IMG/VR virus record: IMGVR_UViG_2778261084_000005
Coordinates: 1-28,897 of that record
Origin: a virus
Taxonomy: Duplodnaviria; Heunggongvirae; Uroviricota; Caudoviricetes
Strand: one strand, 5' to 3'
Length of the DNA: 28,897 nt
This document shows, in pieces, positions 1,237-23,242 of the stretch. The first letter of the stretch is position 1, and every line of letters starts with the position of its first letter. The notes below the pieces were generated by a model. That model made no database searches and had not been told where the DNA came from. It saw only the letters and a program-made list of their open reading frames with translations. Both the position numbers and the translations under genes were made by a program.

Positions 1237-1237
1237 A

Positions 1238-6008: not shown

Positions 6009-6229
6009 CACCATGACTCCGCCTTTACAGGTAAACCATCACGACCGAGGAAGACTTTAATCATGCGGTCAGTAATGCATGTTTTTGTGGTCAGGTTACG
6101 AATATATAGTTTTCGCTTTTTAATATTGTTTGCCGAGGCAATATATGTCCGGCCTTCATGAAGAACATAATCGCCAGGAGTCACACACTGACGTGGTATT
6201 TCATCAGTTCCGAAGTGATGTGCAATCAT
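6008..6229 (-). CDS. kilR: KilR cell-division inhibitor (73 aa from [10 protein letters not shown])
   Basis: Translation matches recalled Rac KilR; start at internal Met of the 77-aa track ORF. Confidence 0.85.
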
Positions 6230-6670
6230 AATTATCTCCATTTTTACAAATGAACTTTGTTGATGCGGTGCCTGGTGCCTCCAGGTGACTGCAACCAGTT
6301 AACAATTACAGTCGGCTTTCCCACCCAAACCAATAAGGACTAACATGACTTTTAACTGTGCCACGTGCGCTTAGCCGCATTCACCGCATCACAAAATTCA
6401 CTTTAAAAAGGGCGGACATCAGCCGAACTTCAAGAAAAAAACTGATGCCGCCAGGACTACACACAGCAATGTCGTTATTTACAACCGGAGGCGCACTCCC
6501 ACCATTTAAATTTAACAGACAAGACCGACTCTTTATGGATATCGGAAATGCGCCTTCGTGTTGTGCCCGGTTTTATTTCACCACCTCCGGGCTTCGGTGG
6601 TCTCGGCTATACCCCTACAGCGAGAGCTTGTGTTAACATTTCAATACCCTTACAGTTGAGAGTTATTGAT

Positions 6671-7159
6671 ATGTTGGATGTATTTACTCCATTGTTGAAA
6701 CTTTTTGCTAACGAGCCACTCGAAAGACTTATGTATACGATTATCATTTTTGGTCTCACTCTCTGGCTGATACCGAAAGAGTTTACTGTCGCATTCAATG
6801 CTTATACTGAAATACCTTGGCTCTTTCAGATTATCGTTTTTGCCTTTTCTTTCGTGGTCGCCATTTCCTTCTCAAGATTGCGAGCACATATTCAAAAGCA
6901 TTATTCATTACTACCAGAGCAACGAGTATTGCTTCGTTTATCTGAGAAAGAAATCGCTGTATTTAAAGATTTCCTTAAAACAGGAAATCTTATTATCACT
7001 TCTCCTTGCCGTAACCCGGTTATGAAAAAATTAGAACGGAAGGGCATCATTCAACATCAGAGTGATAGCGCAAACTGTTCTTATTATCTCGTCACCGAAA
7101 AATACTCCCATTTTATGAAGTTATTCTGGAACAGCAGGAGTAGACGTTTTAATCGTTAG
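6671..7159 (+). CDS. sieB: SieB superinfection exclusion protein (162 aa), membrane protein
   Basis: Start at Met42 (MLDVFTPLLK) of the track ORF, ATG at 6671. Hydrophobic N-terminal helices; matches recalled SieB. Confidence 0.85.
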   Translation: MLDVFTPLLKLFANEPLERLMYTIIIFGLTLWLIPKEFTVAFNAYTEIPWLFQIIVFAFSFVVAISFSRLRAHIQKHYSLLPEQRVLLRLSEKEIAVFKDFLKTGNLIITSPCRNPVMKKLERKGIIQHQSDSANCSYYLVTEKYSHFMKLFWNSRSRRFNR

Positions 7160-7311
7160 CTTACTGTGTGCTTCTCCAACCATCGGCGCGCACCAGTTTC
7201 GGTTTTAAATGTTTTGCTTTTGGTATACGTCATGGCAGTGAACGTTCCATCCTGGTTGGGGAACACGCCGCACACCAGGGATTCGTTGTTGCCGAGGTCG
7301 ATTTTTTGCAT
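7156..7311 (-). CDS. ydaF: Small prophage protein (51 aa)
   Basis: Own translation MQKIDLGNNESLVCGVFPNQDGTFTAMTYTKSKTFKTETGARRWLEKHTVS. Convergent with sieB, overlapping by 4 nt. Symbol from size and position only. Confidence 0.5.
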   Translation of the reverse strand: MQKIDLGNNESLVCGVFPNQDGTFTAMTYTKSKTFKTETGARRWLEKHTVS

Positions 7312-7321
7312 TTTGCGAATC

Positions 7322-7456
7322 TCACATCTTGTTGCTACGTATAGCGACTTCTGCCTGCCAGAGATCCCAGTCGTTGCTGCGTAAAGCCTGCACAGCCTGG
7401 TTGTAAGTGATACCGCAACAATCCATCAAATACTGAACTACTTCGTAATGCACCAT
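7322..7456 (-). CDS. ydaG: Small prophage protein (44 aa)
   Basis: Own translation MVHYEVVQYLMDCCGITYNQAVQALRSNDWDLWQAEVAIRSNKM. Symbol from size and position only. Confidence 0.5.
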   Translation of the reverse strand: MVHYEVVQYLMDCCGITYNQAVQALRSNDWDLWQAEVAIRSNKM

Positions 7457-7743
7457 CTTATCTATCCCCTTAACGCCGGGTGGCGGAACTAACTGCTGCA
7501 CTGCAAAATTTGAATCCCGCCGTCATGTTCATACGCCTCGGGCTGGCTACTTAACCCCTGACCACTGCCTGGTAACTCGAAGTATTGCCCGGCGTTCTGT
7601 GGGGCGGGGTGGGTTGGTAGGTATATAATGTACTTTGTGTTCATCATTGTAAAGTACTTTAAGTACATTTTATGTATAAAAAAATGAGACGGGATAAAGT
7701 GAAGCACAAACCCGGAGGGGGACGCTACCGGATTTATGCTGGT

Positions 7744-8163
7744 TTAAGAGGCTTTTTGTTTTTTCTTTCGTGCTAACTCTTCGTAAATTGCATTGTACTT
7801 CTGTTTTTTCTCCTCAAGAGTTTTTAAAAGTTCATCTGTCTCACTGTCAGGGAGCTCGTCCAGAAGGTCAATGATGATTTTTTGTCTTGGATTTAACTCC
7901 TGATAGAAACGTATCTGTCCACTTTCTTCTGTATCCTCTCCCAAAAGATAGGTTGGTGTTGTTCCAATGAGTGTTGCTAATTCCCTTAATTTCTCTCGGC
8001 GAGGAATTGTTTCACCATTAAACCATTTGCTAACCGCTTTTGGTGTTAATTTCATTCGACGGGCAATTTCTGCCTGCCTTCCATGTTGTTCATAACCAGC
8101 GTTTTCACAGGCTAGCGCAAGCCTACTGGCGAACTCTTTACGCGCTTTATCTTCATGAACCAT
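7744..8163 (-). CDS. racR: Prophage repressor, XRE-type helix-turn-helix (139 aa)
   Basis: HTH-like segment (GRQAEIARRMKLTPKAVSKWFNG); divergently arranged with a cro-like gene, as for cI-type repressors. Confidence 0.8.
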   Translation of the reverse strand: MVHEDKARKEFASRLALACENAGYEQHGRQAEIARRMKLTPKAVSKWFNGETIPRREKLRELATLIGTTPTYLLGEDTEESGQIRFYQELNPRQKIIIDLLDELPDSETDELLKTLEEKKQKYNAIYEELARKKKQKAS

Positions 8164-8242
8164 AAGTTCAATGATATTCGCTCTTGAATGTACTGTCAGT
8201 TCTGTTATAGCATGTACTCAAAGTTCACATTGTGAGGGTGAT

Positions 8243-8497
8243 ATGAACCAGAAAACACTTGAAGATGTAATCAAAACTGTTCGCGTTTCTGTTGTGGCCG
8301 ACGTTTGTGGTGTCAGCCAAAGAGCAATCTACAAATGGATGGATAACGGAAAATTGCCTCGCACAGAATATACCGGCGAAACAAATTACGCTGAAAAAAT
8401 CGCTCATGCATCAAACGGATTATTTTCTGCCGATGCAATTTTAACTATTGGCAGAAATAAAACTACTACGAAAAAGCTGATGGGAGTTGATTCATGA
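8243..8497 (+). CDS. ydaS: Cro/YdaS-like small DNA-binding protein (start ambiguous: 8171 or 8243)
   Basis: ATG at 8243 is preceded by a GAGGG ribosome-binding site and leaves room for a divergent promoter shared with racR. Confidence 0.7.
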   Translation: MNQKTLEDVIKTVRVSVVADVCGVSQRAIYKWMDNGKLPRTEYTGETNYAEKIAHASNGLFSADAILTIGRNKTTTKKLMGVDS

Positions 8498-8916
8498 AAA
8501 TCAAGCATGAGCACATCGAATCAGTGTTGTTAGCCCTGGCAGCCGAAAAAGGGCAGGCGTGGGTCGCTAACGCAATTACTGAAGAATATCTGCGCCAGGG
8601 GGGCGGCGAATTGCCCCTGGTACCAGGCAAGGACTGGAACAATCAGCAGAATATCTATCATCGTTGGTTGAAAGGTGAAACGAATGCGCAAAGGGAAAAA
8701 ATTCAGAAACTGATCCCTGCGGTTCTGGCAATTCTTCCTCGCGAGCTGCGTCACCGACTCTGCATCTTCGATACCCTGGAACGCCGTGCATTACTGGCGG
8801 CACAGGATGCACTGAGTACGGCAATTGATGCGCATGATGATGCAGTCCAGGCCGTTTACCGTAAAGCACATTTCAGCGGCGGCGGTTCTCCTAGCGATTC
8901 TGTCGTAGTGCATTGA
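8494..8916 (+). CDS. ydaT: YdaT-like protein (140 aa)
   Basis: ATGA overlap with ydaS stop at 8494-8497; conserved position after the cro-like gene. Confidence 0.8.
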   Translation: MKIKHEHIESVLLALAAEKGQAWVANAITEEYLRQGGGELPLVPGKDWNNQQNIYHRWLKGETNAQREKIQKLIPAVLAILPRELRHRLCIFDTLERRALLAAQDALSTAIDAHDDAVQAVYRKAHFSGGGSPSDSVVVH

Positions 8917-8929
8917 TTGAAATTAATCG

Positions 8930-8951
8930 TACCGAACTGTTTTGTTCGGTA
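8930..8951 (+). other. Perfect 8-bp inverted repeat hairpin (TACCGAAC-TGTTTT-GTTCGGTA) just after ydaT
   Basis: Read directly from sequence; no clear U-tract, so possibly an attenuator or protein binding site rather than a terminator. Confidence 0.35.
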
Positions 8952-8960
8952 TCAGTTAAA

Positions 8961-8981
8961 TGTAACGCTGCGAGCGTTACA
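8961..8981. repeat. Palindrome TGTAACGCTGCGAGCGTTACA, copy 1, 13 bp upstream of ydaU start
   Basis: Perfect 9-bp arms; same family as copies at 9153 and 9360. Confidence 0.6.
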
Positions 8982-8993
8982 AGGTGAAAACAA

Positions 8994-9782
8994 ATGGCTT
9001 CAAACTGGATAAAGCTCGAAGTTATTACGCCGGATAAGCCGGAAATATTCAGGCTTGCTGAGATTCTGAATATTGATCCAGATGCCGCATTAGGGAAAGT
9101 CATTCGCTTCTGGGCATGGGCGGATCAACAAATGATAGACGGTAACGCAGAGTGTAACGCTCGCGGCGTTACAAAAAGTGCAATAGATCGCATCACTTTT
9201 ATGGCTGGTTTTGCTGATGCGTTAATTCAGGTTGGATGGCTGGTCGAAACTAATGGTGTGTTGTCGCTTCCTAACTTTGAGCGCCATAACGGGAAAAGCT
9301 CTAAAAAACGGGCGGTTACAAACGAGAGAGTAACAAAAATACGAGAACTGAAACGAAAAGGTAACGCTGCCAGCGTTACAAAAACGGATCAAAAAGCGTT
9401 ACCAGAGGAAGAGAAAGAGGAAGATATAAATACTTATCTCCCCCTAAATCCCCCTCGCCAAAAACGAGCGTCTAAAAAATTCGAACCGGAGGCTATCGAG
9501 CTGCCTGACTGGTTGCCGGAAACACTCTGGCATGAGTGGGTTCAGTTCAGGCAGGCATTGCGAAAACCGATTCGAACGGAGCAGGGCGCTAACGGGGCGA
9601 TACGGGAGCTGGAAAAATTCCGCCAGCAGGGTTTTTCACCTGAGCAGGTGATTCGACACAGCATCGCCAACGAATACCAGGGCTTGTTCGCGCCGAAAGG
9701 TGTTCGACCTGAGACGTTACTCCGACAGGTTAACACCGTCTCGTTACCGGATAGTGCGATCCCGCCAGGCTTCAGGGGGTAA
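8994..9782 (+). CDS. ydaU: Replication initiator/organiser-like protein (262 aa), lambda O analogue
   Basis: Directly precedes a DnaC-like loader; contains internal iteron-like DNA repeats followed by an AT/purine-rich stretch. Confidence 0.7.
   Translation: MASNWIKLEVITPDKPEIFRLAEILNIDPDAALGKVIRFWAWADQQMIDGNAECNARGVTKSAIDRITFMAGFADALIQVGWLVETNGVLSLPNFERHNGKSSKKRAVTNERVTKIRELKRKGNAASVTKTDQKALPEEEKEEDINTYLPLNPPRQKRASKKFEPEAIELPDWLPETLWHEWVQFRQALRKPIRTEQGANGAIRELEKFRQQGFSPEQVIRHSIANEYQGLFAPKGVRPETLLRQVNTVSLPDSAIPPGFRG
9153..9173. repeat. Palindrome TGTAACGC-TCGCG-GCGTTACA, copy 2, inside ydaU
   Basis: 8-bp perfect arms; an additional half-site GGTAACGC lies at 9141-9148. Confidence 0.6.
9360..9380. 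repeat. Palindrome GGTAACGCTGCCAGCGTTACA, copy 3, inside ydaU
   Basis: 9-bp perfect arms; half-sites GTTACAAA / GTAACAAAAA also occur in 9311-9340. Confidence 0.6.
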
Positions 9783-9788: not shown

Positions 9789-10535
9789 ATGAAAAATATT
9801 GCGACAGGCGACGTTCTTGAACGTATCCGCAGACTGGCCCCGTCACATGTAACCGCGCCATTCAAGACGGTAGCGGAGTGGCGCGAGTGGCAACTTTCCG
9901 AAGGCCAGAAACGTTGTGAGGAGATCAACCGTCAGAATTGTCAGTTGCGGGTGGAAAAAATTCTGAATCGCTCTGGCATCCAGCCATTGCACCGCAAATG
10001 CTCGTTTTCGAATTACCAGGTGCAGAACGAAGGGCAGCGATACGCGTTGAGTCAGGCGAAATCCATCGCTGATGAACTGATGACCGGGTGTACAAATTTT
10101 GCGTTCAGCGGAAAACCTGGTACCGGGAAGAACCACTTAGCGGCAGCTATCGGGAATCGCCTGCTGAAAGACGGTCAGACAGTGATTGTGGTTACCGTGG
10201 CTGATGTTATGAGTGCCCTGCACGCCAGCTATGACGACGGGCAGTCAGGCGAAAAATTTTTGCGGGAACTGTGCGAAGTGGATCTGCTGGTTCTTGATGA
10301 AATTGGCATTCAGCGCGAGACGAAAAACGAGCAGGTGGTACTGCACCAGATTGTTGATCGCCGGACAGCGTCGATGCGCAGCGTGGGGATGCTGACAAAC
10401 CTGAACTATGAGGCCATGAAAACATTGCTTGGCGAGCGGATTATGGATCGCATGACCATGAACGGCGGGCGATGGGTGAATTTCAACTGGGAGAGCTGGC
10501 GTCCGAATGTCGTCCAGCCAGGAATTGCGAAGTAA
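9789..10535 (+). CDS. ydaV: DnaC-like helicase loader, AAA+ ATPase (248 aa)
   Basis: Walker A ([15 protein letters not shown]) and Walker B (LLVLDEIG) motifs. Confidence 0.85.
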
Positions 10536-10557
10536 TTTTTACCGGGAGAAAAATTTA

Positions 10558-11319
10558 ATGGAGACTGTTTTTGACGTACTGAAAGCAATGGGAAAAGCCA
10601 CATCCATAGAACTTGCTGCGCGACTTGATATCAGTCGTGAAGAAGTGCTGAACGAACTATGGGAACTGAAAAAGGCTGGTTTCGTTGATAAAAGCGCGTA
10701 CACCTGGCGTGTGGCTGATAACAACGTTCAGCAGGAACAGCCAGCGCCGGCAGAACTGCCGGAAGAAACTACCACGGCAACAGTCGCGAAAATTTCAGAG
10801 AGCGATTTAACTGCGACGATTGAACAACGTGGACCACAAACGGCGGATGAGCTGGCTACATTGTTTGGTACCACATCACGCAAAGTGGCTTCAACGCTGG
10901 CAATGGCAATCAGCAAAGGTCGTCTGCTTCGCGTAAATCAGGGCGGTAAATTTCGTTACTGCATACCGGGCGATAATTTACCAGCAGAGCCGAAAGCAGC
11001 ATCGGTAGCGGAAACTGCTGGTAAGGCCTTTCCTCAGCCCGCAGGTGTTGCGTTACCAGTACAGGAGGCTGCAACACAGGAAGATATTAAAACAGAAACT
11101 GTGGCGGACATTGTGCAGTCGCTGCCATCGTTTACTGAAACGCGAGCGGATGACCTGGTTTTACCATCACTGCATATGGCAAACCGCGAACTGCGTCGGG
11201 CGAAAAATCATGTCCAGAAGTGGGAGCGTGTCTGCGCCGCGCTGCGGGAGCTGAACAAGCACAGGGATATTGTACGACAGATTACTGATTCTTCCCGCCA
11301 TGTTGCATCGGAAAAGTGA
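10558..11319 (+). CDS. Phage protein with N-terminal winged-helix-like domain (253 aa)
   Basis: ATG at 10558 with GGGAGA ribosome-binding site; sits where Rac ydaW lies, but no symbol assigned. Confidence 0.5.
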
Positions 11320-11334
11320 TTGCCGGAGGCACCT

Positions 11335-11757
11335 ATGGCAAAAGTATTTACACCAGAAGAGCGGGAAAAAATTAAAGGGCAGGTTGTTGAACTTGTACGT
11401 CTGAGCGGTCGCGAGACGTTACGGGCTCTGGAGGCTAAAACCGGTGCATCAAGGTATTACATAAGCACTCTCGCCAGAGAACTGGTCGCCAGTGGTGATG
11501 TTTACAATTCAGGCTACGGATTATTCCCGTCTGAGCAGGCGCGTAAAGACTGGCAAAACGCCCGCAAAAAACTATCAAGGGCAAAGGTGAAGAAACCGGT
11601 TGTGGTTGATCCTGACCTTATCTGGTCATTACCAGACGGAGAAATACGCCGTTACGACAGGCGTCTGAACATAATCTGTCGCGAGTGCCTGAAGAGAGAA
11701 GTTATGCAGCGTGTACTTGCGTTCTACCATGGAAATATTCAGGAGGTTGTGTGGTGA
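11335..11757 (+). CDS. Hypothetical phage protein with HTH-like segment (141 aa)
   Basis: ATG at 11335 preceded by GGAGG; segment GRETLRALEAKTGASRYYISTLAREL looks HTH-like. Confidence 0.45.
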   Translation: MAKVFTPEEREKIKGQVVELVRLSGRETLRALEAKTGASRYYISTLARELVASGDVYNSGYGLFPSEQARKDWQNARKKLSRAKVKKPVVVDPDLIWSLPDGEIRRYDRRLNIICRECLKREVMQRVLAFYHGNIQEVVW

Positions 11758-11864
11758 ACAAGATTAACTATCCGTGGGTAGTCGCTGTCAATGCTTTACT
11801 TGCTGAAGTTCGGGCGGGCGCATTTAACGATCTTTGCGCGGAACAACTTCGCACGCATGAATAA
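11754..11864 (+). CDS. Possible small ORF (36 aa, GTG start) coupled to upstream gene
   Basis: AGGAGG at 11741-11746, GTG at 11754 overlapping the upstream TGA; below track cutoff, no family recognised. Confidence 0.2.
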   Translation: MNKINYPWVVAVNALLAEVRAGAFNDLCAEQLRTHE

Positions 11865-11931
11865 TTAAGTTAGCACTGTAAATAAAATTTAATCCTTAGC
11901 CGGAGGTATTTCTGCACCCTCATAAAATCAG

Positions 11932-11958
11932 GAAACCGCCCGAAAGGGCGGTGGTTTC
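11932..11958. terminator. Bidirectional intrinsic terminator hairpin (GAAACCGCCC-GAAA-GGGCGGTGGTTTC)
   Basis: GC-rich stem with GAAA loop; U-rich tract on the minus-strand side, 6 nt downstream of the 184-aa gene stop. Confidence 0.6.
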
Positions 11959-11963
11959 ATTGT

Positions 11964-12518
11964 TTAACTATCTAATATTGTGCTAAATCTTTTTATAACC
12001 ATCAAGAATGTTACTACGGTAAAAAAGAAGGATGAGTATGCTAAATAACTGATTATGTAAGCAGGGGTTGCGAAATACCATTTTTTTAATTCACTTGGGG
12101 TTTCTGGGAGAAAATATATTGCAACCGAAAAAATAACTAACGCTACAGATGTTAATATAGCATAAGAAACATTGTGACATAATTGCTCATATACGGTTTT
12201 ATTATTATTTAAAATTATTAGATTTGAACGTGGTTTGTTGTTTTCCTCAATGTCTGAAATTTTAAATACAGTTTTTTGTTTTTGATCGTAGATCATAATA
12301 ACCGCGCTCATTAACAGTGCGGTAGTAATTGCTCCAAAGTTAACAAAAACAGATGCGATAGAGGTTTTCATTATCCCATAGGTAAAACATATGATTAATG
12401 ATAATGTAAGAGGAATAATGAAGTGTATTGCGATGTCTTCGAGTAAAATATTTCCGCGTTGATCCGACATTGTTGTGTAATGTTTTTTTATTACACTCAT
12501 TACGTTAATCTTGTTCAT
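11964..12518 (-). CDS. Polytopic inner-membrane protein, four predicted TM helices (184 aa); downstream gene of candidate defence operon
   Basis: Four hydrophobic stretches of about 21-28 residues with a charged loop between helices 2 and 3; ATG overlaps the upstream gene's TGA (ATGA at 12515-12518); AT-rich. Confidence 0.7.
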   Translation of the reverse strand: MNKINVMSVIKKHYTTMSDQRGNILLEDIAIHFIIPLTLSLIICFTYGIMKTSIASVFVNFGAITTALLMSAVIMIYDQKQKTVFKISDIEENNKPRSNLIILNNNKTVYEQLCHNVSYAILTSVALVIFSVAIYFLPETPSELKKWYFATPAYIISYLAYSSFFFTVVTFLMVIKRFSTILDS

Positions 12519-13447
12519 ATTTTTAATCCCCCATTACCACTATGTAACTCACTTAGTATATCATTCGCAATGATTTTAACTGTGTCATGAAGTGCTTTAA
12601 GATTGGGGATTCCTGTAGATGCGTTTATGTTTAAGTCGTTATCATCTAATTCGGCAGAAATTCCTTTTCTTAAGATGGTGTCGTAATTAAAAATGACTGT
12701 TCTATTGCCTAATTGTAAACTAACTTTTATTGCGTCACACTTATCTTCAATTATTTCTATTATATTTCCTAGTTTTTTGTCTTTTAAGTCTTTAAAACTA
12801 CCAAATACGCCTTGATTTGCTTTTATTACCAAATCGGTTTTGATGTTTGTTTTGTTATTTCCGAATGAATCCGTGATGTCCTTTGGTGCTTTGTAACCTT
12901 GGGCTTTTATTTGTTTTAATTCTGAATCAAGGATGTGTTGGGGGATTTTTTTGTGGCAAAGAGGATTGATTCTCGCTTCAAGTTTATATTTTGTTTTCAA
13001 GTGGTCTAGTAATGCATCAGAGAGTGTGCTGCGAGCAGAAATATTGTCATTAGCGTGAAATGCTATAATCCCTTCTTCTAAATTGTCTGGCAAAAATATT
13101 AAAATGTAACGCTGTTTGAGAGTTACATCGTTGATAGTTGTTGTATAACGTATTTTAGTAAGTTTATCGTCTTTTATTTCACTGCTCTCACCATATTTCC
13201 CAACCTTTACATATCCATATATTACTTGGTTTTGAGCATCAAAGGTGAGTGATGTGTGTTGTTCAAGAGAAACCTTTGTTTTCGAGAGACCAAATTCAAT
13301 AGGTGTGTTTTTATAGCTATTAAAATACTCAACAAATAATTCATATGCTGTTTTTTTATCGCTTAAACCTAGGTTGTTTAGTCTTTTGCTGGTTCGGCTG
13401 CCCTTGTGGGTTAACACACGGAATGAATAGAAGTTAACGCTGTGCAT
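12515..13447 (-). CDS. Soluble protein of unknown function (310 aa); upstream gene of candidate defence operon
   Basis: ORF with AAGGA ribosome-binding site about 9 nt before ATG at 13447; no TM segments; Lys/Asn/Ile-rich; no family recognised by eye. Confidence 0.7.
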   Translation of the reverse strand: MHSVNFYSFRVLTHKGSRTSKRLNNLGLSDKKTAYELFVEYFNSYKNTPIEFGLSKTKVSLEQHTSLTFDAQNQVIYGYVKVGKYGESSEIKDDKLTKIRYTTTINDVTLKQRYILIFLPDNLEEGIIAFHANDNISARSTLSDALLDHLKTKYKLEARINPLCHKKIPQHILDSELKQIKAQGYKAPKDITDSFGNNKTNIKTDLVIKANQGVFGSFKDLKDKKLGNIIEIIEDKCDAIKVSLQLGNRTVIFNYDTILRKGISAELDDNDLNINASTGIPNLKALHDTVKIIANDILSELHSGNGGLKI

Positions 13448-13464
13448 GAAAAGTCCTTTTGAAC

Positions 13465-13500
13465 ATATAGGAATATATTAGAGCATGAATGTGTGCAATG
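13465..13500 (-). promoter_or_regulatory. Putative sigma70-type promoter region for the two-gene operon
   Basis: On minus strand: TTGCAC (13493-13498) followed by TAATAT/TATATT candidates; spacing imperfect (12-15 nt). Confidence 0.25.
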
Positions 13501-13872
13501 CATAAAAGAAAAAGCTACCGCAAGGCGACTCCACCCACAGATAGCTCTTAATTGATTGTTTGTAAAAAATAATACATTAATTATCTTCTGTGTAAAGAGG
13601 GAAACAGCCTTAGGGTAAGGGACACGAGTTGGGGGGACTGGTGAAATTTGCGTTGAGGATAAAACGATTTGCGGGAAAAGGATAGTTAAGTAGAATTGCT
13701 GCGGGTGCTTGAGGCTGTCTGCCTCGGGCATGAACACCAAAGGCAGATAGAGAAAAGCCCCAGTTAACATTACGCGTCCGGCAAGACGCTTAACATTAAT
13801 CTGAGGCCACATCTATGCTTTGCATACGTAGATTAGCCTCTTACCGACCAAAAGGTCAAGGAGAAGCAGGTT

Positions 13873-14028
13873 ATGAAGCAGCAAAAGGCGATGTTAATCA
13901 CCCTGATCGTCATCTGTTTAACCGTTATAGTGACGGTACTGGTAACGAGGAAAGACCTCTGCGAGGTACGAATCCGAACCGACCAGACGGAGGTCGCTGT
14001 CTTCACAGCTTACGAACTTGGGGAGTAA
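13873..14028 (+). CDS. hok: Hok/Gef-family type I toxin (51 aa)
   Basis: Own translation MKQQKAMLITLIVICLTVIVTVLVTRKDLCEVRIRTDQTEVAVFTAYELGE; AAGGAG site upstream. Overlapping mok-like leader ORF starts at 13815 and now runs into IS186. Confidence 0.85.
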   Translation: MKQQKAMLITLIVICLTVIVTVLVTRKDLCEVRIRTDQTEVAVFTAYELGE

Positions 14029-14040
14029 GAGGACCAGCGG

Positions 14041-14050
14041 GGAGAAATCC
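14041..14050. repeat. IS186 target-site duplication, left copy (GGAGAAATCC)
   Basis: Identical 10-mer at 15390-15399 immediately outside the other IS end. Confidence 0.8.
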
Positions 14051-15389
14051 CATAAGCGCTAACTTAAGGGTTGAACCATCTGAAGAATGCGACGCCTCGG
14101 TGCCTCGTTAAGACGATGCCTCGCGTTCTTCAATTGCGTTTTGTAGGCTGTCAGGGATACTGTCCCACGAATGGCCACCTGTAAGCTCCAGATGACCATT
14201 TTTGTTATTCTCCACAACGAGTTAGTTCTTCTTTTCGGATCCGGCACTTCTGGGGGGGAAATCCAGCGATGGCTGGATTATGTCGTCAATTAAAAATGCG
14301 GCGAGTAGATTAGCAAATATCCACGCTTTCGCGAGTTCAGGTTCCTTTGCACGCAAAGCATCCAGGTGCAGCAAACTTTTGAGCCGCTTAAAAGCCAGTT
14401 CAATTTGCCATCGCAGACGGTAACAATCAGCCACTTGCTCTGCTGAATATTCATCTTCCGGTAATGATGTTAGCAATAGCACATGGCCCGCTGCTTCCAG
14501 CGTTTCCGCCTGAACTACTCGTCCTTTTCGACGATTCTCGCTGAGCAGTCGGGTTTTACTGATTAATGCTTTTTCGGGAGGAAGTGATACGGCAATGAGA
14601 CGTGCCGGAAAGGGAGCTCCGGCTTTTTTATTACCTGAATTGCCTATCATTACAGTGGTTTCACCGTTCTTACCGCAATCCAGCCCGCGCAGAAAACCCA
14701 TCATGTCAAAGCGCATTCCTTCTGCAGTTAACCAGCGCAATCCTCGCCAGTGAACCCGGACGATATAATCAGCTTCTCCAAAAGCAAGTGAGCGGATACA
14801 TTCGGGACGCGAACCGAATCCCCGGTCAGCAATGCGTATCTCGTCTGCCGTTTGCGCAAATCGGTCCAGCCGTTCAGCGTCTCTGCTGTCGGTTAGCTCA
14901 AAATCAGTGAACTGACAGGTATGAGGATCATATCCCATATGTAGTCGCCATTCAGCGCTGCCGCCCCCGGGCGCACTGATTGCTGTTCCATCGACAAGAC
15001 GCAATCTCTTTCCGCTTGTACAACCCGTAACTGCGGCGCGTACAGCAAGTGTTTGTGCGGCAAGTATGCCAAACCAGTCGGCGGCATTCCGCAGCCGCTT
15101 CAGGAGAGCCACGTCAGATAATGTTGCAACGTCATGGAGCTGAGCCCATGCAGTGACTTCACGTAATGACATCCCCCCGGGGCCGTAAGCCAGCCCCAGA
15201 CGTAGCAGAGTTGCAGCATCACGAATTTCGCGGCGGCGGGTTAGAGCCCCGGCATTACGTGCCGAAGTATCCAGTTCTTCGGGCTTACCAATATGGGCCA
15301 GAATTGCTGACCAGTTATCGTGAGAGTAATTCATCGGCACGTTAAATCATATCAGGCGTAATACCACAACCCTTAAGTTAGCGCTTATG
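14051..15389 (-). mobile_element. IS186 (IS4 family), 1339 bp, complete
   Basis: Terminal inverted repeats CATAAGCGCTAACTTAAGGGTTG at 14051-14073 and reverse complement at 15367-15389; single transposase ORF. Confidence 0.9.
14222..15334 (-). CDS. insL: IS186 transposase (370 aa from MNYSHDNW)
   Basis: Translation matches recalled InsL essentially along its length. Confidence 0.9.
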   Translation of the reverse strand: MNYSHDNWSAILAHIGKPEELDTSARNAGALTRRREIRDAATLLRLGLAYGPGGMSLREVTAWAQLHDVATLSDVALLKRLRNAADWFGILAAQTLAVRAAVTGCTSGKRLRLVDGTAISAPGGGSAEWRLHMGYDPHTCQFTDFELTDSRDAERLDRFAQTADEIRIADRGFGSRPECIRSLAFGEADYIVRVHWRGLRWLTAEGMRFDMMGFLRGLDCGKNGETTVMIGNSGNKKAGAPFPARLIAVSLPPEKALISKTRLLSENRRKGRVVQAETLEAAGHVLLLTSLPEDEYSAEQVADCYRLRWQIELAFKRLKSLLHLDALRAKEPELAKAWIFANLLAAFLIDDIIQPSLDFPPRSAGSEKKN

Positions 15390-15399
15390 GGAGAAATCC
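15390..15399. repeat. IS186 target-site duplication, right copy (GGAGAAATCC)
   Basis: See left copy; the reconstructed empty site is GCGGGGAGAAATCCCCGC. Confidence 0.8.
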
Positions 15400-15840
15400 C
15401 CGCAACCTCTGATGTATTATGCATCCTCAACGCAGCCACAGTTAACCTGATTGGCGGGTTTATTTCATCTGTAAATATTTTTATAAAAATAATGCCCACG
15501 CACAGCATAAAACAAAAAGTATTACAGATAAAAAAGGAACGTAATGTGCAGATTTGTTGTTTTCCATATTTACTCACCTTAATATGATTAATCCTGATAG
15601 GGTTGTTATTTCAGCGGTTTTCAAATGAGATATTATGGTGATCTGACAAATTTGCATAACATTAAAATTTAATTTGTTTAACCGCTTTTAATAATAAGCG
15701 TTGTTTGTATCCCAGCAATCTGTTGTTTGGTTTTTATTCCATTAAGGTGGGGGCTTTACACTGGAACCAGTTTATTTATACTTTATACGTCAGCCTGAAC
15801 AACTGGCATCTGCTGCACTGCGCCATCGAGAGATTGAGAA

Positions 15841-16440
15841 ATGGCGCATATACAACTGGTCAAACAAACTTCTTCTGGTTTACTTCTCCCGGCGACGCCG
15901 GAGAGTTGCGATTTTCTGCATCAAATCAAAATAGGTGAGTGGATACACGCAGACTTTAAGCGTGTGCGTAACTACGCATTCCACAAGCGTTTTTTCAAAC
16001 TCCTGCAACTGGGATTCGATTACTGGACTCCGGTCGGTGGGGCGATCACGCCTCGCGAACGAGAACTGCTGTCTGGTTTCGTTGATTACCTGTGCGAATC
16101 AGTTGGTCGGGAACACACGCCAGCCCTGAGTGATGCCGCAGAGCAATACCTTAACACCGTTGCGACTCGTAGAACCCGGGATACGGCGTTGCTAAAGTCG
16201 TTTGAGGCTTTCCGCGAGTGGGTAACCATTCAGGCCGGATTTTACACCGAGCATATTTATCCGGACGGTAGCCGTGGGCGTCGGGCAAAATCCATCGCTT
16301 TTGCGAATATGGACGAAGTCGAGTTTCAGCAGGTTTATAAATCTGTACTGAATGTGCTGTGGAACTGGATTCTGTTCCGTAAATTCTCTTCTCAGGAGGA
16401 AGTTGAAAATGTGGCCGCACAACTACTGGAGTTTGCGTAA
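15841..16440 (+). CDS. Phage nin-region protein (199 aa), family uncertain
   Basis: First of three translationally coupled genes ending in a Q-like gene. Confidence 0.45.
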   Translation: MAHIQLVKQTSSGLLLPATPESCDFLHQIKIGEWIHADFKRVRNYAFHKRFFKLLQLGFDYWTPVGGAITPRERELLSGFVDYLCESVGREHTPALSDAAEQYLNTVATRRTRDTALLKSFEAFREWVTIQAGFYTEHIYPDGSRGRRAKSIAFANMDEVEFQQVYKSVLNVLWNWILFRKFSSQEEVENVAAQLLEFA

Positions 16441-16730
16441 TGGTGAATTTACGTAAAGCGGCTAAAGGCCAGATGTGCCAGATCAGAATCCCTGGCTACT
16501 ACAATCACAATCCCGAAACCTCTGTGCTGGCGCATTACAGGCTGGCGGGGACGTGCGGAACAGCGACAAAACCACATGATATGCAGGCGGCGATAGCCTG
16601 TAGCTCATGCCACGATCTAATCGACGGGCGGGTAAAAACCAGCGATTACACCAAAGAAGAATTGCGCCTGATGCATGCTGAAGGGGTTTTTCGCACACAA
16701 GAAATCTGGAGAAAGAAAGGTCATTTATGA
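16440..16730 (+). CDS. YbcO-like Cys/His-rich small protein, putative nuclease (96 aa)
   Basis: Start overlaps upstream stop (TAATG); motifs CGTATKP and IACSSCHDLIDGR resemble recalled DLP12 YbcO. Confidence 0.55.
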   Translation: MVNLRKAAKGQMCQIRIPGYYNHNPETSVLAHYRLAGTCGTATKPHDMQAAIACSSCHDLIDGRVKTSDYTKEELRLMHAEGVFRTQEIWRKKGHL

Positions 16731-17269
16731 TTTACCCAACGAATACAGGAAAAAGCGGAGAACACCTTCGCCTCACCACGCTGGAAAGTGTCTGGATTCA
16801 GGGAAAACTACGTATGTGGGGGCGCTGGTCGTATATTGGCGGTGGCAGGTCAGGGAATATGTTCAATCAGTTGTTGGCATCCAAAAAACTGACGAAAACA
16901 GCCATTAATGAAGCCCTGCGCAGAATGAAAAAAGCGGGAATAGAGAAAGCTGAGCTGGAAGCGTTTTTGCGAGAGATGATCAACGGCAAGCAAAAGAGCT
17001 GGCTGGCGCATTGTACTGATGCAGAGGCGTTATGTATTGATCGAGTCATAAGTGAGGTGCTGGCAGAGCATCCAGGATTGATTTGCATTCTCCGGCAACG
17101 CTATGAAGGGCGGGGGATGACTAAGCGCAAAATGGCTGAATTGCTAAATGATGCACACCCAGAGTGGTGTTTTAGCACATGCGAAAAACGGATTGCTAAT
17201 TGGTTAGCTGTTGCTGAGTATGCCCTACATATTCCCATGCGTGAATCATTTGCTGAGAAAATGGCTTGA
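16727..17269 (+). CDS. Late-gene antiterminator Q-like protein (180 aa)
   Basis: ATGA overlap with upstream gene; RMWGRW motif and downstream helical segment resemble the Q family; lies upstream of terminators and the lysis cassette. Confidence 0.5.
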   Translation: MIYPTNTGKSGEHLRLTTLESVWIQGKLRMWGRWSYIGGGRSGNMFNQLLASKKLTKTAINEALRRMKKAGIEKAELEAFLREMINGKQKSWLAHCTDAEALCIDRVISEVLAEHPGLICILRQRYEGRGMTKRKMAELLNDAHPEWCFSTCEKRIANWLAVAEYALHIPMRESFAEKMA

Positions 17270-17350
17270 TTTCTTACGTATAAACTGCTTCAATTTTGCT
17301 ATGCTTCGCAAAGCTGTATCGCGAGGCGGATTGCAGACATGGACATCGTA

Positions 17351-17377
17351 AAAAAACCGCTTAATGCGGTTTTTTTA
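17351..17377. terminator. Intrinsic terminator (AAAAAAACCGC-TTAAT-GCGGTTTTTTT)
   Basis: Perfect hairpin flanked by A-tract and T-tract, 82 bp after the Q-like stop. Confidence 0.65.
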
Positions 17378-17695
17378 CGTCAGGAAAGCAGGGGAGAATG
17401 CTGCTAGTTGGGCAACTGGTCTTTCTGCTCCAAATTATAACAGAGACCAGTTATAGTTTCGGTGCTGTGTTTTTTTACAATATTGTGATAACACATTGCT
17501 GGCGGGAGTTTTGATATTTCTTGGCAGGGGCTGATGATGCGTTATCCTGATGTCGTCAACTCATATAAAATGAGATGAGAGATCATTGCAGGGTGGTTTG
17601 TAATTCGCTGTTTAGCGGGACAATATGTTGTCTGATACAAGACACCCGACGCCTCAGATTACTATAATAAAGACGAAGCATCCTTTGTATTGACC

Positions 17696-17721
17696 AACCG
17701 CCTGTTTAGGCGGTTCTTTTT
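17696..17721 (+). terminator. Intrinsic terminator (AACCGCC-TGTTTA-GGCGGTT + CTTTTT), possible tR'-like site
   Basis: Hairpin plus T-run inside an ORF-poor AT-rich stretch downstream of Q. Confidence 0.5.
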
Positions 17722-18252
17722 GGGCTGGTTTATTGTATGCCAAATGATTATTAAAAAGGTTGTGTTAATAACAAAATCCGAAATAATATGCCTGCATATT
17801 TTTATCTTGCTTATATTCTGCATATTGTGCATAGCAGGCTCATCCCTGCAATCAAAACTGTATGATGAGTATTTTTTGTTTTCCTTTTTTCCAGTCATCT
17901 GATGATGACCTGCTTCTTTTTAATCCGGATCGACATCAGTTTTTTAAGATAATTCCTGCGAGTTATATGCATAAATGCCACAAACTCCGCATTTTATGTG
18001 GTTGGGAGTTGCCGGGCGCGCAGTGAGTTTGCTAAGAAAACTCCTGCATGGTGAATCCCCCTGTGCGGTGGGGTGATACCATTAACCTTTTCTGTCGCCG
18101 ACAGGTATCACGAACATTTTGTTCACCGGGAGGCACCCGGCACCATGTACTTCAATAGATTCTCTCCACATTATGGATATTCTTTCAGAATATCCCACGC
18201 AGACTTTGTGTAAATGTTAACAAATGTGCGTTTTATTTGATCTGATTCGCTG

Positions 18253-18282
18253 TTTGAGCGTCCAAAACAACGGTATATATAA
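18253..18282 (+). promoter_or_regulatory. Putative sigma70 promoter TTGAGC-N18-TATAAT upstream of first lipoprotein gene
   Basis: -35 at 18253-18258, -10 at 18277-18282. Confidence 0.3.
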
Positions 18283-18312
18283 TCCTTTACTATATGACAT
18301 ATGTGAGGAAAA

Positions 18313-18741
18313 ATGGGTTTTCGTAGCGCATCAATTCTTACGTTGATTATTAGTGGGATTATTATCGGGTGCACTGATGCTGTATCGACAAATTATCATG
18401 ACCGTACATCATATTACTCCGATAAAGCAATAGAGACACAGTATGTGAGTTCATCTGAACGTACTTCTGATGTTAGTGAGGATATCCGTCTGTATGCCCA
18501 TCAAATCAAGAGCGCCATCGAAAAACAGTTCGGGGATGCGAGTAAGTATTCAGGAAAAGAGTGTACACTGAGAATGCATATGGCCCCGAATGGCCTTCTA
18601 CTGGAGGTTAAAAGAGAAAGTGGAGACCTCGATTTATGTCGTGAAGCGATGAATGCGATAAAGAATGCTGATATACCTGCCCCCCCTTCGCCGGAAGTAT
18701 ATAAAGTATTTCAAAATGGGGTGCTGGATTTTAAACCCTGA
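18313..18741 (+). CDS. Lipoprotein with TolA C-terminal (domain III)-like domain (142 aa)
   Basis: Signal peptide with lipobox IIGC; C-terminal ~85 aa align by eye with recalled TolA C-terminus, including terminal LDFKP. Confidence 0.75.
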   Translation: MGFRSASILTLIISGIIIGCTDAVSTNYHDRTSYYSDKAIETQYVSSSERTSDVSEDIRLYAHQIKSAIEKQFGDASKYSGKECTLRMHMAPNGLLLEVKRESGDLDLCREAMNAIKNADIPAPPSPEVYKVFQNGVLDFKP

Positions 18742-18891
18742 TATTTATTGTTTTGTAATAAACGGTTTCGGCTTAGGTTTGTTCTGACACAGCTACGGCA
18801 CTGAGCTAAATTTAGCGGATAGTCAGCTCTGAGCCAGTGGCGGACGTAACAACTACTATTGCTGAGATTTTAATGGATTGAGGAGCAAGAA

Positions 18892-19287
18892 GTGGGATTA
18901 AAGAAAATCGTTATGTTGACTTTTTGGGTCGGTTTTGTTGCGGGATGCACACCTTTACACCCTTCAGATTGCCACAAAACTACTGCTACAGGTAGTTGCA
19001 GTTCAGGACGCTGGGATGATCAGGATGAATGGGGGGCGCAAGCGCGGGGAATCAGAGCTGCAATTAATGCCAAACTTGATGAGCCGCATAACTGGAAAGG
19101 GAAAAAATGCAGGTTGCATATGGAATTCTCTCAGGATGGCACGGCGTTAAAAATATCTACCAGTAACGGTGATAAAGCCTATTGCGAAGCGATAAAGTCC
19201 GCAGCTCATAAAGCCAAATTTCCGGCCTTCAACAATCCGGAAGTCTACAGAGATTTTCAGAAATCTGGCTTTGACATGCGAGGTTAG
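18892..19287 (+). CDS. Paralogous lipoprotein with diverged TolA domain III-like C-terminus (131 aa, GTG start)
   Basis: GAGGAG site then GTG; lipobox VAGC; shares KGKxCxLxM...GDxxxCxxA...PxxxxPEVYxxFQ pattern with the first lipoprotein. Confidence 0.65.
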   Translation: MGLKKIVMLTFWVGFVAGCTPLHPSDCHKTTATGSCSSGRWDDQDEWGAQARGIRAAINAKLDEPHNWKGKKCRLHMEFSQDGTALKISTSNGDKAYCEAIKSAAHKAKFPAFNNPEVYRDFQKSGFDMRG

Positions 19288-19538
19288 CTCTTCAATTACT
19301 ATATCTCATTCATAGCAAACTGACAGATTTGATGATGTTCTATATACGAAACCTGTGATGTCAAGTCTGAGCTAATACAAATAAACATAATATCAGAGAA
19401 ATACATTTTATTAGCTCGCTACGGCGAGCTTTTTATATTGCATCGTCTCCAGCATATATATCAATTAAGGCTCTGATTGATGTGTCTGAAAGCCTACACA
19501 TAATAACTATGCCATCCGTTCCGTGCGGAGGTGAGGCT

Positions 19539-19754
19539 ATGAAATCCATGGACAAAATTTCAACAGGCATTGCCTACGGCACCTCCGCAGGCAGTGCTGG
19601 CTACTGGTTTTTACAGTTGCTCGATAGAGTAACTCCGTCACAGTGGGCTGCAATCGGTGTGCTGGGTAGTCTGGTATTTGGCCTGCTGACGTACCTGACA
19701 AACCTTTATTTCAAGATTAAAGAAGATAAGCGCAAGACTGCGAGAGGTGAATAA
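19539..19754 (+). CDS. Phage-21-type class II holin/antiholin (pinholin) with dual-start motif (71 aa)
   Basis: [10 protein letters not shown]... with Met1 and Met4 starts; matches recalled S21. Confidence 0.85.
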
Positions 19755-20251
19755 TGCCTCCATCATTACGAAAAGTCGTTGCTGCTGCTATTGGTGGCGG
19801 AGCAATTGCTATAGCATCAGTGCTAATCACTGGCCCAAGTGGTAACGATGGTCTGGAAGGTGTCAGCTACATACCATACAAAGATATTGTTGGTGTATGG
19901 ACTGTATGTCACGGGCATACAGGAAAAGACATCATGCTCGGTAAAACGTATACCAAAGCAGAATGCAAAGCCCTCCTGAATAAAGACCTTGCCACGGTCG
20001 CCAGACAAATTAACCCGTACATCAAAGTCGATATACCGGAAACAATGCGCGGCGCTCTTTACTCATTCGTTTACAACGTGGGTGCTGGCAATTTCAGAAC
20101 ATCGACGCTTCTTCGCAAAATAAACCAGGGCGATATCAAAGGCGCATGTGATCAGCTACGTCGCTGGACATATGCTGGCGGTAAGCAATGGAAAGGTCTC
20201 ATGACTCGTCGTGAGATTGAGCGTGAAATCTGTTTGTGGGGTCAGCAATGA
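19754..20251 (+). CDS. SAR endolysin, lysozyme family (165 aa)
   Basis: Gly/Ala-rich weakly hydrophobic N-terminal segment ([18 protein letters not shown]) followed by lysozyme-like domain; start overlaps holin stop. Confidence 0.85.
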
Positions 20252-20712
20252 ACAGAGTAACCGCGATTATCTCCGCTCTGGTTATCTGCATCATCGTCTG
20301 CCTGTCATGGGCTGTTAATCATTACCGTGATAACGCCATTACCTACAAAGCCCAGCGCGACAAAAATGCCAGAGAACTGAAGCTGGCGAACGCGGCAATT
20401 ACTGACATGCAGATGCGTCAGCGTGATGTTGCTGCGCTCGATGCAAAATACACGAAGGAGTTAGCTGATGCGAAAGCTGAAAATGATGCTCTGCGTGATG
20501 ATGTTGCCGCTGGTCGTCGTCGGTTGCACATCAAAGCAGTCTGTCAGTCAGTGCGTGAAGCCACCACCGCCTCCGGCGTGGATAATGCAGCCTCCCCCCG
20601 ACTGGCAGACACCGCTGAACGGGATTATTTCACCCTCCGGGAACGACTGGTAATGATGCAGGCCCAACTTGAAGGTGCTCAGCAATACATAACCGAGCAG
20701 TGTTTAAAGTAA
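20248..20712 (+). CDS. Rz-like inner-membrane spanin (154 aa)
   Basis: N-terminal TM helix plus coiled-coil-like periplasmic region; ATGA overlap with endolysin. Confidence 0.8.
20468..20653 (+). CDS. Rz1-like outer-membrane lipoprotein spanin (61 aa), embedded in Rz in +1 frame
   Basis: Signal peptide with lipobox VVGC and proline-rich mature part. Confidence 0.8.
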
Positions 20713-20849
20713 AATCTTAACTACAATATGATTCATTTTGATGATTGTTTCATAAGGAACAGTGAAGTAAGATCTAAGAGGAGTTAAATTTTATACAGTA
20801 TAATCATAATATTGCAGCAAGGTGGTTATAATTGAAAGAATATTTAGAT

Positions 20850-22307
20850 ATGAATACATCTCATGTAAGAGTTGTTACTCATATGTGTGGGTTCTTGGTT
20901 TGGCTCTATAGTCTTTCAATGTTGCCACCAATGGTTGTAGCATTGTTTTATAAAGAAAAAAGCCTGTTCGTTTTCTTTATAACTTTCGTTATATTTTTTT
21001 GCATTGGTGGCGGAGCGTGGTATACAACTAAGAAATCTGGCATTCAATTACGTACCCGTGATGGGTTTATTATAATTGTAATGTTTTGGATTTTGTTTTC
21101 TGTTATTAGTGCATTCCCTTTATGGATTGACTCAGAACTTAATTTAACGTTCATTGACGCTCTGTTTGAAGGGGTTTCTGGAATAACAACAACAGGAGCA
21201 ACTGTAATTGATGATGTTAGTTCATTACCTCGGGCATATTTGTACTATCGGTCACAGTTAAATTTTATAGGTGGTTTAGGAGTTATTGTTCTGGCGGTTG
21301 CAGTATTGCCATTATTGGGTATTGGTGGTGCAAAGCTTTATCAGTCAGAAATGCCGGGGCCATTTAAGGATGACAAACTCACTCCCCGCCTGGCCGATAC
21401 GTCACGGACACTGTGGATAACTTATTCTTTATTAGGTATTGCTTGTATTGTCTGTTATAGACTTGCAGGAATGCCTTTGTTTGATGCTATTTGTCACGGG
21501 ATTTCCACAGTTTCGCTTGGTGGTTTCTCAACTCATAGCGAGAGTATCGGATATTTTAATAACTATTTGGTTGAGCTGGTGGCTGGTTCTTTTTCCCTGC
21601 TATCGGCTTTCAACTTCACTCTTTGGTATATTGTTATTAGCAGAAAAACGATAAAACCTTTAATCAGAGATATTGAACTTCGTTTCTTTCTGTTAATAGC
21701 CTTAGGGGTGATCATTGTTACCTCTTTCCAGGTCTGGCATATAGGTATGTATGACTTGCATGGAAGTTTTATTCATTCGTTTTTTCTTGCCAGCTCCATG
21801 CTCACTGATAATGGTTTAGCTACGCAGGATTATGCAAACTGGCCCACGCACACGATAGTGTTTTTGCTGTTGTCAAGTTTCTTTGGGGGATGTATAGGTT
21901 CAACCTGTGGTGGAATTAAGTCACTTCGATTTCTTATACTTTTCAAACAAAGCAAACACGAGATAAATCAGCTTTCTCATCCCAGAGCGTTGTTGAGTGT
22001 AAATGTAGGAGGGAAGATAGTTACAGATCGTGTAATGAGGTCTGTATGGAGTTTCTTTTTTCTTTATACTCTCTTCACGGTGTTTTTTATACTGGTGTTA
22101 AATGGTATGGGATATGATTTTCTTACATCATTTGCAACAGTGGCTGCATGTATTAATAATATGGGATTAGGTTTTGGGGCTACTGCATCGTCATTCGGAG
22201 TGCTTAATGACATTGCAAAGTATTTAATGTGCATAGCTATGATTCTTGGTCGCCTTGAAATTTATCCTGTTATTATATTGTTTTCAGGTTTTTTTTGGCG
22301 CTCCTAA
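20850..22307 (+). CDS. trkG: Trk-system potassium uptake protein (485 aa from MNTSHVRVV)
   Basis: Polytopic membrane protein matching recalled TrkG; AT-rich cargo gene after the lysis cassette. Confidence 0.9.
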   Translation: MNTSHVRVVTHMCGFLVWLYSLSMLPPMVVALFYKEKSLFVFFITFVIFFCIGGGAWYTTKKSGIQLRTRDGFIIIVMFWILFSVISAFPLWIDSELNLTFIDALFEGVSGITTTGATVIDDVSSLPRAYLYYRSQLNFIGGLGVIVLAVAVLPLLGIGGAKLYQSEMPGPFKDDKLTPRLADTSRTLWITYSLLGIACIVCYRLAGMPLFDAICHGISTVSLGGFSTHSESIGYFNNYLVELVAGSFSLLSAFNFTLWYIVISRKTIKPLIRDIELRFFLLIALGVIIVTSFQVWHIGMYDLHGSFIHSFFLASSMLTDNGLATQDYANWPTHTIVFLLLSSFFGGCIGSTCGGIKSLRFLILFKQSKHEINQLSHPRALLSVNVGGKIVTDRVMRSVWSFFFLYTLFTVFFILVLNGMGYDFLTSFATVAACINNMGLGFGATASSFGVLNDIAKYLMCIAMILGRLEIYPVIILFSGFFWRS

Positions 22308-23236: not shown

Positions 23237-23242
23237 TGATTT

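Follow-up and report, generated by a model that had tools for sequence, protein, structure and literature searches.

The stretch of DNA analysed here (IMG/VR record IMGVR_UViG_2778261084_000005, positions 1 to 28,897; hereafter the window) is a Rac-type lambdoid prophage whose middle contains a slot for exchangeable cargo, lying between a DUF977 gene and hok/sok, that behaves as an anti-phage defence hotspot and is occupied in this strain by a two-gene cassette resembling the Rex system of phage lambda in architecture. The slot belongs to a 9,260-bp segment that Escherichia coli K-12 has lost. Although K-12 Rac serves as the reference, its centre is that of a deletion derivative, and the intact form reveals where lambdoid prophages hold exchangeable anti-phage cargo. 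Taken as a whole, it is likely that the interval is to be read as one deletion in K-12, a lambdoid backbone with two moron-type slots and one insertion sequence (IS), a defence hotspot and a Rex-like pair. More tentatively, and with somewhat more doubt than confidence, we propose that the DUF977-hok slot is an undescribed lambdoid defence hotspot and that its occupant is the first recognised E. coli member of a Rex-like abortive-infection family without similarity to RexA/RexB. Slot and module both fall within known kinds of system, and what is added is a lambdoid cargo slot that has clear limits, lends itself to mining and is rich in genes for defence, together with a candidate distant Rex-type module. 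The searchable literature holds no prior description of the Rex-like module or of a Rac or lambdoid hotspot at this position, one directly relevant paper lying outside its coverage.

By blastn the window is colinear with K-12 Rac (intR, recE/recT, kilR, sieB, ydaV, trkG), positions 1-7619 (intR-recET-kilR-sieB) being 98.9% identical, and prophages adjoining ttcA in strains L73 and ET201 are 99.9% identical to it; the window begins within intR, and ttcA itself is visible only in these two near-identical loci. K-12 Rac also shares ydaV, Rz/Rz1, trkG and part of the tail region, whereas its repressor/cro pair and the gene at the ydaU position are not the same (window 7620-9408 is mostly unmatched), and the window keeps, besides the 9,260 bp, another 2.5 kb (22699-25238) that is gone from K-12. 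The interval of interest runs from the DnaC-like replication ATPase, a ydaV homologue (9789-10535, plus strand; 98% identity to the K-12 ydaV region and named ydaV in L73), to trkG (20850-22307, plus strand; 99.1% identical to K-12). It comprises what the centre of a Rac-type lambdoid prophage ordinarily contains: the last part of the early-right operon, then the Q antiterminator and the genes for lysis. Backbone and cargo were divided on the basis of pairwise alignments with eight other prophages and their annotations. Roughly half of the interval is conserved backbone (DUF1627-DUF977 with a terminator hairpin, hok/sok, DUF1367-YbcO-DUF1133(Q) and holin-lysozyme-Rz/Rz1), and the variable cargo is confined to three places: 11955-13680, an IS186 copy at 14052-15388, and the 2.2 kb between Q and holin (17270-19480). 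The original prediction of an island of strain-specific cargo thus holds for these three places and fails for the conserved half of the 10 kb.

The first variable place is a slot of 1.7 kb (11955-13680) defined by homology breakpoints against six other prophages. Homology to other prophages stops at 11954, just past the hairpin, and restarts at 13680-13694, where sok begins; on the left side homology to the prophages of KFu022 (L003) and STEC367 (L006) ends at 11954, and that to two more (L005 and L010) covers 11858-11952. The GC (guanine plus cytosine) fraction of the slot is 0.331 vs 0.456 for the whole window. Its conserved left flank consists of the DUF977 gene (11335-11757, plus strand; Pfam DUF977 1.2e-25; 597 relatives in IMG/VR) and, as the last conserved element, the GC hairpin terminator ACCGCCCGAAAGGGCGGT found by a terminator scan at 11935-11952. 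The conserved right flank is a type I toxin-antitoxin locus, hok/sok (13703-14028, plus strand; Rfam and Pfam), in which the Hok peptide gene (13873-14028, plus strand; Pfam HOK_GEF 5.3e-21) is overlapped by the sok antisense RNA (13703-13878; Rfam RF01794 103.9 bits, gathering score 59). The same flanks are found in prophages with different replication and Q modules, and thus the cargo should be swappable by homologous recombination in the flanks; relative to KFu022 the flank identity is mosaic (88.7% on the left, 99.2% on the right). Exchange of cargo by recombination in conserved flanks has been described for the P2 and P4 hotspots (PMC9122126), and it is by such a mechanism that the cargo would be replaced here.

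Among annotated E. coli genomes the slot is occupied by a SIR2 protein, a KilA-N protein, an NA37-type protein with a 477-amino-acid partner, three hypothetical proteins, QueH, an alpha/beta hydrolase, DUF7380 or DUF7167 proteins, or by nothing. A larger sample comprised 80 IMG/VR contigs, which are the best DUF977 matches and not a random draw; hok lies downstream of DUF977 in 58 of them, and the resulting 59 slots (these 58 and the window) fall into 26 content clusters with slot lengths of 916-4,051 bp. Several occupants are matched by PADLOC or Pfam models of recognised defence systems: the SIR2 protein matches PDC-S25 (1e-82) and the KilA-N protein BstA (3e-21), a P4 Beta protein (Pfam 3e-52, PD-Lambda-2_C 1.7e-41) is accompanied by a cII-like gene (2.4e-28), a DUF262 enzyme matches HEC-06 (4e-221), a C5 methylase (1e-96) is found with a HEC-04/OLD-like ATPase (1.7e-34), and an ImmA/CapP-like peptidase is also among the matches to defence models. 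The segment between the DUF977 hairpin and hok/sok has conserved flanks, highly variable content and recognised defence systems among its occupants, and in these features it behaves like a hotspot of anti-phage defence.

Two observations weigh against an exclusively defensive role. QueH is the most frequent cargo of the IMG/VR sample (19 of 59 slots), and many slots carry plus-strand ead/Ea22-, DUF551- or DUF4752-type genes, so the slot is not reserved for defence. Both would suit a general moron or accessory site of lambdoid phages, an extension of the nin/ea region in which defence matches occur at their overall frequency in prophages. We consider this alternative unlikely, though it is the best of those weighed here, since at least six distinct cargo types give matches to defence models with strong E-values, the defence cargoes are mostly of low GC and lie on the minus strand wherever the strand was recorded, and the same families reappear in the P4 hotspot. 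The likeness of the defence slot to P4-type hotspots (PMC9122126; PMC13586616) extends to its conserved flanks, its very diverse short cargo and its mixture of known and unknown defence systems; the families in common are the Beta protein/cII, present in this slot, and the Rex-like pair, which stands beside a P4-like primase in Pantoea. Unlike the P4 hotspot, the present slot is part of a lambdoid element, between the DUF1627-DUF977 early genes and hok/sok and upstream of nin/Q, and its cargo includes non-defence genes such as QueH. With the DUF977 terminator hairpin on one side and hok/sok on the other, both easy to recognise, it could be mined across thousands of genomes for new defence systems, in the way already applied to the P2 and P4 hotspots.

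The occupant of the slot in the window is a pair of minus-strand genes. Gene A (12515-13447) codes for a 310-amino-acid protein whose predicted structure has the two-domain fold of the RexA/RdgC type, a proposed DNA-binding sensor, and its stop codon overlaps (ATGA) the start of gene B (11964-12518), which codes for a 184-amino-acid four-helix membrane protein, the proposed effector with a RexB-like role. A hydropathy scan finds four membrane segments in gene B (residues 29-47, 58-76, 119-137 and 155-173), likewise in lambda RexB, and the AlphaFold2 model (predicted local distance difference test score 88) consists of four long helices. With a promoter-like site on the same strand (TTTACA-16-TATTAT, 13569-13596; 10/12 matches in a consensus scan) inside the cassette-specific DNA, the cassette appears to be an operon with a promoter of its own. 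Neither protein gave a match in Pfam and PADLOC scans, and a literature search with the protein accessions of the cassette found nothing.

Genome counts were made over 5,426 complete E. coli genomes. The cassette DNA is present in 36 of them, nearly identical in 15 and at about 76% identity in 21; in E24377A, one of the latter, it is again beside hokD in an otherwise different prophage. Word-indexed searches yielded about 40 clusters per protein (44 for the 184-amino-acid protein), all from Enterobacterales, bearing no protein name and devoid of Pfam domains, and an exhaustive profile search with the 310-amino-acid protein gave 579 representatives (50% identity), nearly all about 300-315 amino acids long; a Pfam domain was found in none of 60 diverse members of this family. 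A gene for 175-184 amino acids accompanies the family even in remote relatives, the most divergent of which, in a Pseudomonas Pf inovirus, has only about 23% identity. A Serratia lambdoid prophage has the pair in the same slot on the opposite strand, Pantoea dispersa (L008 8001-9484) has it beside the primase of a P4-like satellite, two metagenomic loci have it beside an integrase or a YafO toxin, and in the Pf inovirus, Pseudomonas phage PfAC16 (L095 412-1883), it directly adjoins the repressor and excisionase genes, its membrane protein aligning with that of the window at an hhalign E of 5e-27. Mobile elements as unlike as lambdoid prophages, P4-like satellites and Pf inoviruses share this two-gene module, which moves among them. 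In addition, the rank-2 viral structural matches of the two models in BFVD (A0A8S5S8L2 and A0A8S5S8H0; 314 and 172 amino acids) come from one uncultured virus, Siphoviridae sp. ctylc9, and this agreement of predicted structures suggests that the pair may be kept together there too.

Based on the predicted RexA/RdgC DNA-binding fold of gene A and the four membrane helices of gene B, we propose a Rex-like mechanism: the gene A product would sense an infection-specific DNA or protein-DNA intermediate and then activate the gene B product, an inner-membrane protein translationally coupled to A, which would damage or depolarise the membrane and thereby abort the infection. The pair may thus work like lambda RexAB or P. 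putida RexABpp, by analogy with systems in which a small four-helix inner-membrane protein is likewise encoded immediately downstream of a RexA-like gene, and we hold this to be nearly, though not quite, as probable as its opposite.

A number of observations count against this proposal. The gene A model is of moderate confidence, residues 191-227 being poorly predicted, and the RexA/RdgC fold is also found in DNA-binding proteins that have no part in defence. Gene A has no match to the RexA family (Pfam PF15969 or PADLOC RexA), while the PADLOC RexA/RexB models do recognise the lambda proteins (lambda RexA at 9e-110). In hhalign comparisons, a profile of 60 gene A members aligned with a 27-member RexA profile at an E of 0.059 and a probability of 0.9%, over a C-terminal helix only, neither the close gene A family nor the 60-member profile showed a link to lambda RexA, and the gene B family reached an E of 0.09 against RexB, again with no PADLOC match. 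A hidden Markov model search of PDB sequences gave no link to RexA or RexB, and in Foldseek comparisons with viral models neither lambda RexA nor lambda RexB appeared among the matches, with nothing significant for the 184-amino-acid model. The promoter-like sites of the region are no more numerous than in shuffled sequence, so the candidate promoter is weak evidence. Finally, the cassette is neither at an immunity-region site nor co-transcribed with the repressor, being about 4 kb from it and on the strand opposite to the early operon. On these grounds neither protein can be counted as an established member of the RexA or RexB family.

Known Rex systems differ from the cassette in several respects. 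The lambda proteins have no detectable sequence similarity to those of the cassette, whereas the P. putida prophage P1 pair PP_5643/PP_5644, of RexAB type, has a protein with an HHpred score of 98% to RexA. Gene B is 40 residues longer than lambda RexB and has a 40-residue loop between helices 2 and 3, and the cassette genes overlap whereas lambda rexA and rexB are 15 nt apart. Lambda rexAB sits in the immunity operon and the cassette does not, although the homologous pair of PfAC16 does adjoin the repressor.

That last arrangement also suits a serious rival, in which the pair is an addiction or prophage-maintenance module (a membrane toxin checked by its soluble partner) or a regulator of the switch between lysis and lysogeny. 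The cassette adjoins another addiction module, hok/sok, and one of its distant homologues stands beside the YafO toxin; furthermore, the RexA-like and RexB-like roles are reversed in phage Butters (PMC12894663), and lambda RexA pushes the switch toward lytic growth (PMC11077077). However, several recognised defence proteins are among the other occupants of the slot, and the module is also present beside a P4-like satellite, where there is no lambdoid switch to regulate. We regard an addiction or switch-regulating role as improbable, slightly more so than a general moron site for the slot as a whole, and addiction and abortive infection are not mutually exclusive. The cassette is a candidate, open to experimental test, for a remote branch of Rex-type exclusion; the Rex mechanism is unsettled after decades of study, and a divergent branch would offer a new point of comparison.

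If the slot is an undescribed defence hotspot and the pair a Rex-like family member, other unannotated occupants of the slot would be further new systems, i.e., an NA37-like protein with a membrane protein, a trio of 363, 142 and 197 amino acids, and a 298-amino-acid protein. The slot of KFu022 (L003 3421-5884) and an IMG/VR copy (L049) combine an NA37-type nucleoid-associated protein (Pfam 5e-13 and 3e-51) with a protein of 410-477 amino acids, and the 410-amino-acid partner in L049 has hydrophobic stretches at its C-terminus. This would be, once again, a DNA-binding protein together with a membrane protein. A PADLOC scan of the NA37-type pair gave no match, and hhalign showed no relation between the 310-amino-acid family and the NA37-type protein of KFu022.

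The slot is absent from K-12 because of a deletion. A colinear blastn comparison of K-12 with the window across the interval leaves a single gap: 9,260 bp of the window (11008-20267) are absent from MG1655, where window position 11007 abuts 20268 (K-12 stretch 14202/14201) with a microhomology of only 2 bp (TA). On the left the break follows codon 150 of the DUF1627 gene, hence the 186-codon ydaW of K-12, and on the right it falls at codon 7 of Rz (rzpR'), hence the pseudogene rzpR; K-12 retains the first 150 DUF1627 codons and Rz from codon 7 on, 99.1% identical to the window. As K-12 keeps the broken ends of two genes, the difference is a loss in K-12 and not a gain in the window, and the centre of K-12 Rac derives from a single illegitimate deletion of 9,260 bp. 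The K-12 junction is full-length in 338 of the 5,426 genomes, whereas an uninterrupted DUF1627 gene at the breakpoint is found in 2,310 and the Rz-trkG junction, a marker of trkG-carrying Rac prophages, in 1,520, so the long form is the usual state. The mosaic nature of lambdoid prophages, the DLP12-style names (essD, rrrD) of the lysis genes in near-identical strains and the uneven flank identities to other prophages could also suggest that the window strain gained the extra 9 kb (by insertion or by recombination with another lambdoid prophage, e.g., one providing a DLP12/Qin-type lysis module), which we consider very improbable given that two truncated genes fused at a 2-bp microhomology are the signature of a deletion and that the long form is the commoner one; the long form as an insertion is rejected, both ends being truncated in K-12. 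Both ydaW and rzpR have long been regarded as gene remnants of Rac, so this part of the reading is not new.

The alignment also bears on what the original prediction had said of the interval. The distance of about 10 kb between the DnaC-like gene and trkG was correctly estimated (10,314 bp, from 10535 to 20850), while the 1.4 kb given for K-12 was slightly too large, the interval in MG1655 measuring 1,052 bp (ydaV end 1422729, trkG start 1423782). Whole-region alignment with K-12, which had been suggested as the check, gave the one deletion described above and not the same gene content at this position, and it supports the view that this prophage is less degraded in its centre than K-12 Rac. 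All the named elements (a winged-helix and a helix-turn-helix protein, the two-gene system, hok, IS186, a nin-like triplet with a Q-like gene, the lipoprotein pair and a full lysis cassette) are present at or near the places given, except that the span assigned to them, 10536-17269, covers only the first 6.7 kb up to the Q-like gene, the lipoproteins and lysis cassette being situated at 17270-20712.

The backbone around the cargo begins with the DUF1627 gene (10558-11319, plus strand; Pfam DUF1627 3.4e-98), the intact form of K-12 ydaW, to which K-12 homology extends as far as 11007; the N-terminus of its product gives a winged-helix/helix-turn-helix signal in Pfam, with weak HTH_20, MarR and TrmB matches at residues 4-46. 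Downstream of the hok locus and IS186 comes the nin-like triplet on the plus strand, formed by DUF1367 (15841-16440; Pfam 6.4e-98), the nuclease-like YbcO (DUF1364; 16440-16730; Pfam 6.1e-43) and the DUF1133 Q-type antiterminator (16727-17269; Pfam 2.7e-106, Phage_antitermQ 7e-6). The lysis cassette is complete (19539-20712) and also on the plus strand, with a P21-type holin (19539-19754; Pfam Phage_holin_2_1 3.4e-35), a lysozyme (19754-20251; Pfam Phage_lysozyme 1.3e-45), Rz (20248-20712; Pfam Phage_lysis 3.5e-53) and, embedded in Rz, Rz1 (20468-20653; Pfam Rz1 2e-19).

The IS186 copy next to hok (14052-15388, minus strand, 1,337 bp) aligns with IS186A of K-12 and has the expected size of about 1.34 kb, an InsL-type transposase and 23-bp terminal inverted repeats (CATAAGCGCTAACTTAAGGGTTG). 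It interrupts a GC hairpin, GCGGGGAGAAATCCCCGC, 12 nt past the hok stop codon, towards the 3' end of the hok mRNA, where regulated activation requires a fold-back element, and is bordered by a 12-bp direct repeat, the target duplication GGGAGAAATCCC within that hairpin (14040-14051 and 15389-15400). IS186 prefers targets of the form GGGG(N6)CCCC. Of 13 genomes with this block at a coverage of at least 80%, 10 lack the element, and ET201 has an empty site. Hok and the IS together are 96% identical to hokC-IS186A of K-12 (K-12 stretch L098 15200-17000), where IS186 is inserted in the same orientation into a homologous GC hairpin just past the hok stop codon; the target duplication there is GGGAGTGATCCC instead of GGGAGAAATCCC, and these are thus separate insertions at equivalent sites in the 3' hairpins of hok genes. 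The same IS186 insertion as in the window is seen in prophages with different slot cargo (KFu022 and STEC367), and in another prophage (L004) homology starts right at the end of the IS (14037).

The second variable slot, between Q and holin (17270-19480, plus strand), contains an STnc100-type small RNA and two lipoproteins with TolA C-terminal domains. Other strains have alternative genes at this site downstream of Q, i.e., tRNA genes, an AraC regulator, an ADP-ribosyltransferase AB5-type toxin or IS66, and it is therefore a second cargo slot; it is also the position at which Stx phages carry their toxin genes. The small RNA (18016-18202, plus strand; Rfam 83.4 bits, gathering score 47) could belong to the late-promoter leader in phages of this type. 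Each lipoprotein combines a lipobox with a TolA C-terminal domain, the first (18313-18741, plus strand) having the lipobox IIGC and a Pfam TolA match of 2.4e-23 and the second (18892-19287, plus strand) the lipobox VAGC and a match of 1.3e-14, and the pair is framed by a promoter-like site (18254-18283) and a terminator (19413-19430). The full lipoprotein block occurs in 450 genomes. One could speculate that in the periplasm these lipoproteins serve as decoys for TolA and so protect against colicins or filamentous phages. The second lipoprotein gene has homologues at 527 plasmid places. In STEC367 (L006 9777-10889) and E24377A (L094 9636-10721) the genes past Q code for a scabin-related ADP-ribosyltransferase with a subtilase-type AB5 binding subunit, or for a Ser/Thr kinase with a PP2C phosphatase.

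Outside the interval, the window prophage remains a defective one: relative to ET201, the large terminase is cut short and the portal and head genes are missing. ET201 keeps 1.4 kb and 3.5 kb that are absent from the window (region 23295-24676), leaving here a 195-amino-acid large-terminase fragment and a tail-tube fragment, and a second deletion of K-12 removed the 2.5 kb corresponding to window 22699-25238. Within 7620-9408, racR/ydaS are replaced by another repressor/cro-type pair (7744-8163 on the minus strand and about 8243-8497), the ydaU position is taken by an unrelated 262-amino-acid gene (8994-9782), and ydaT is 92.5% identical between the window and K-12. At window 1977-3616, K-12 and ET201 match the window, whereas L73 departs here from its 99.9% identity elsewhere and carries another recT together with a longer recE.

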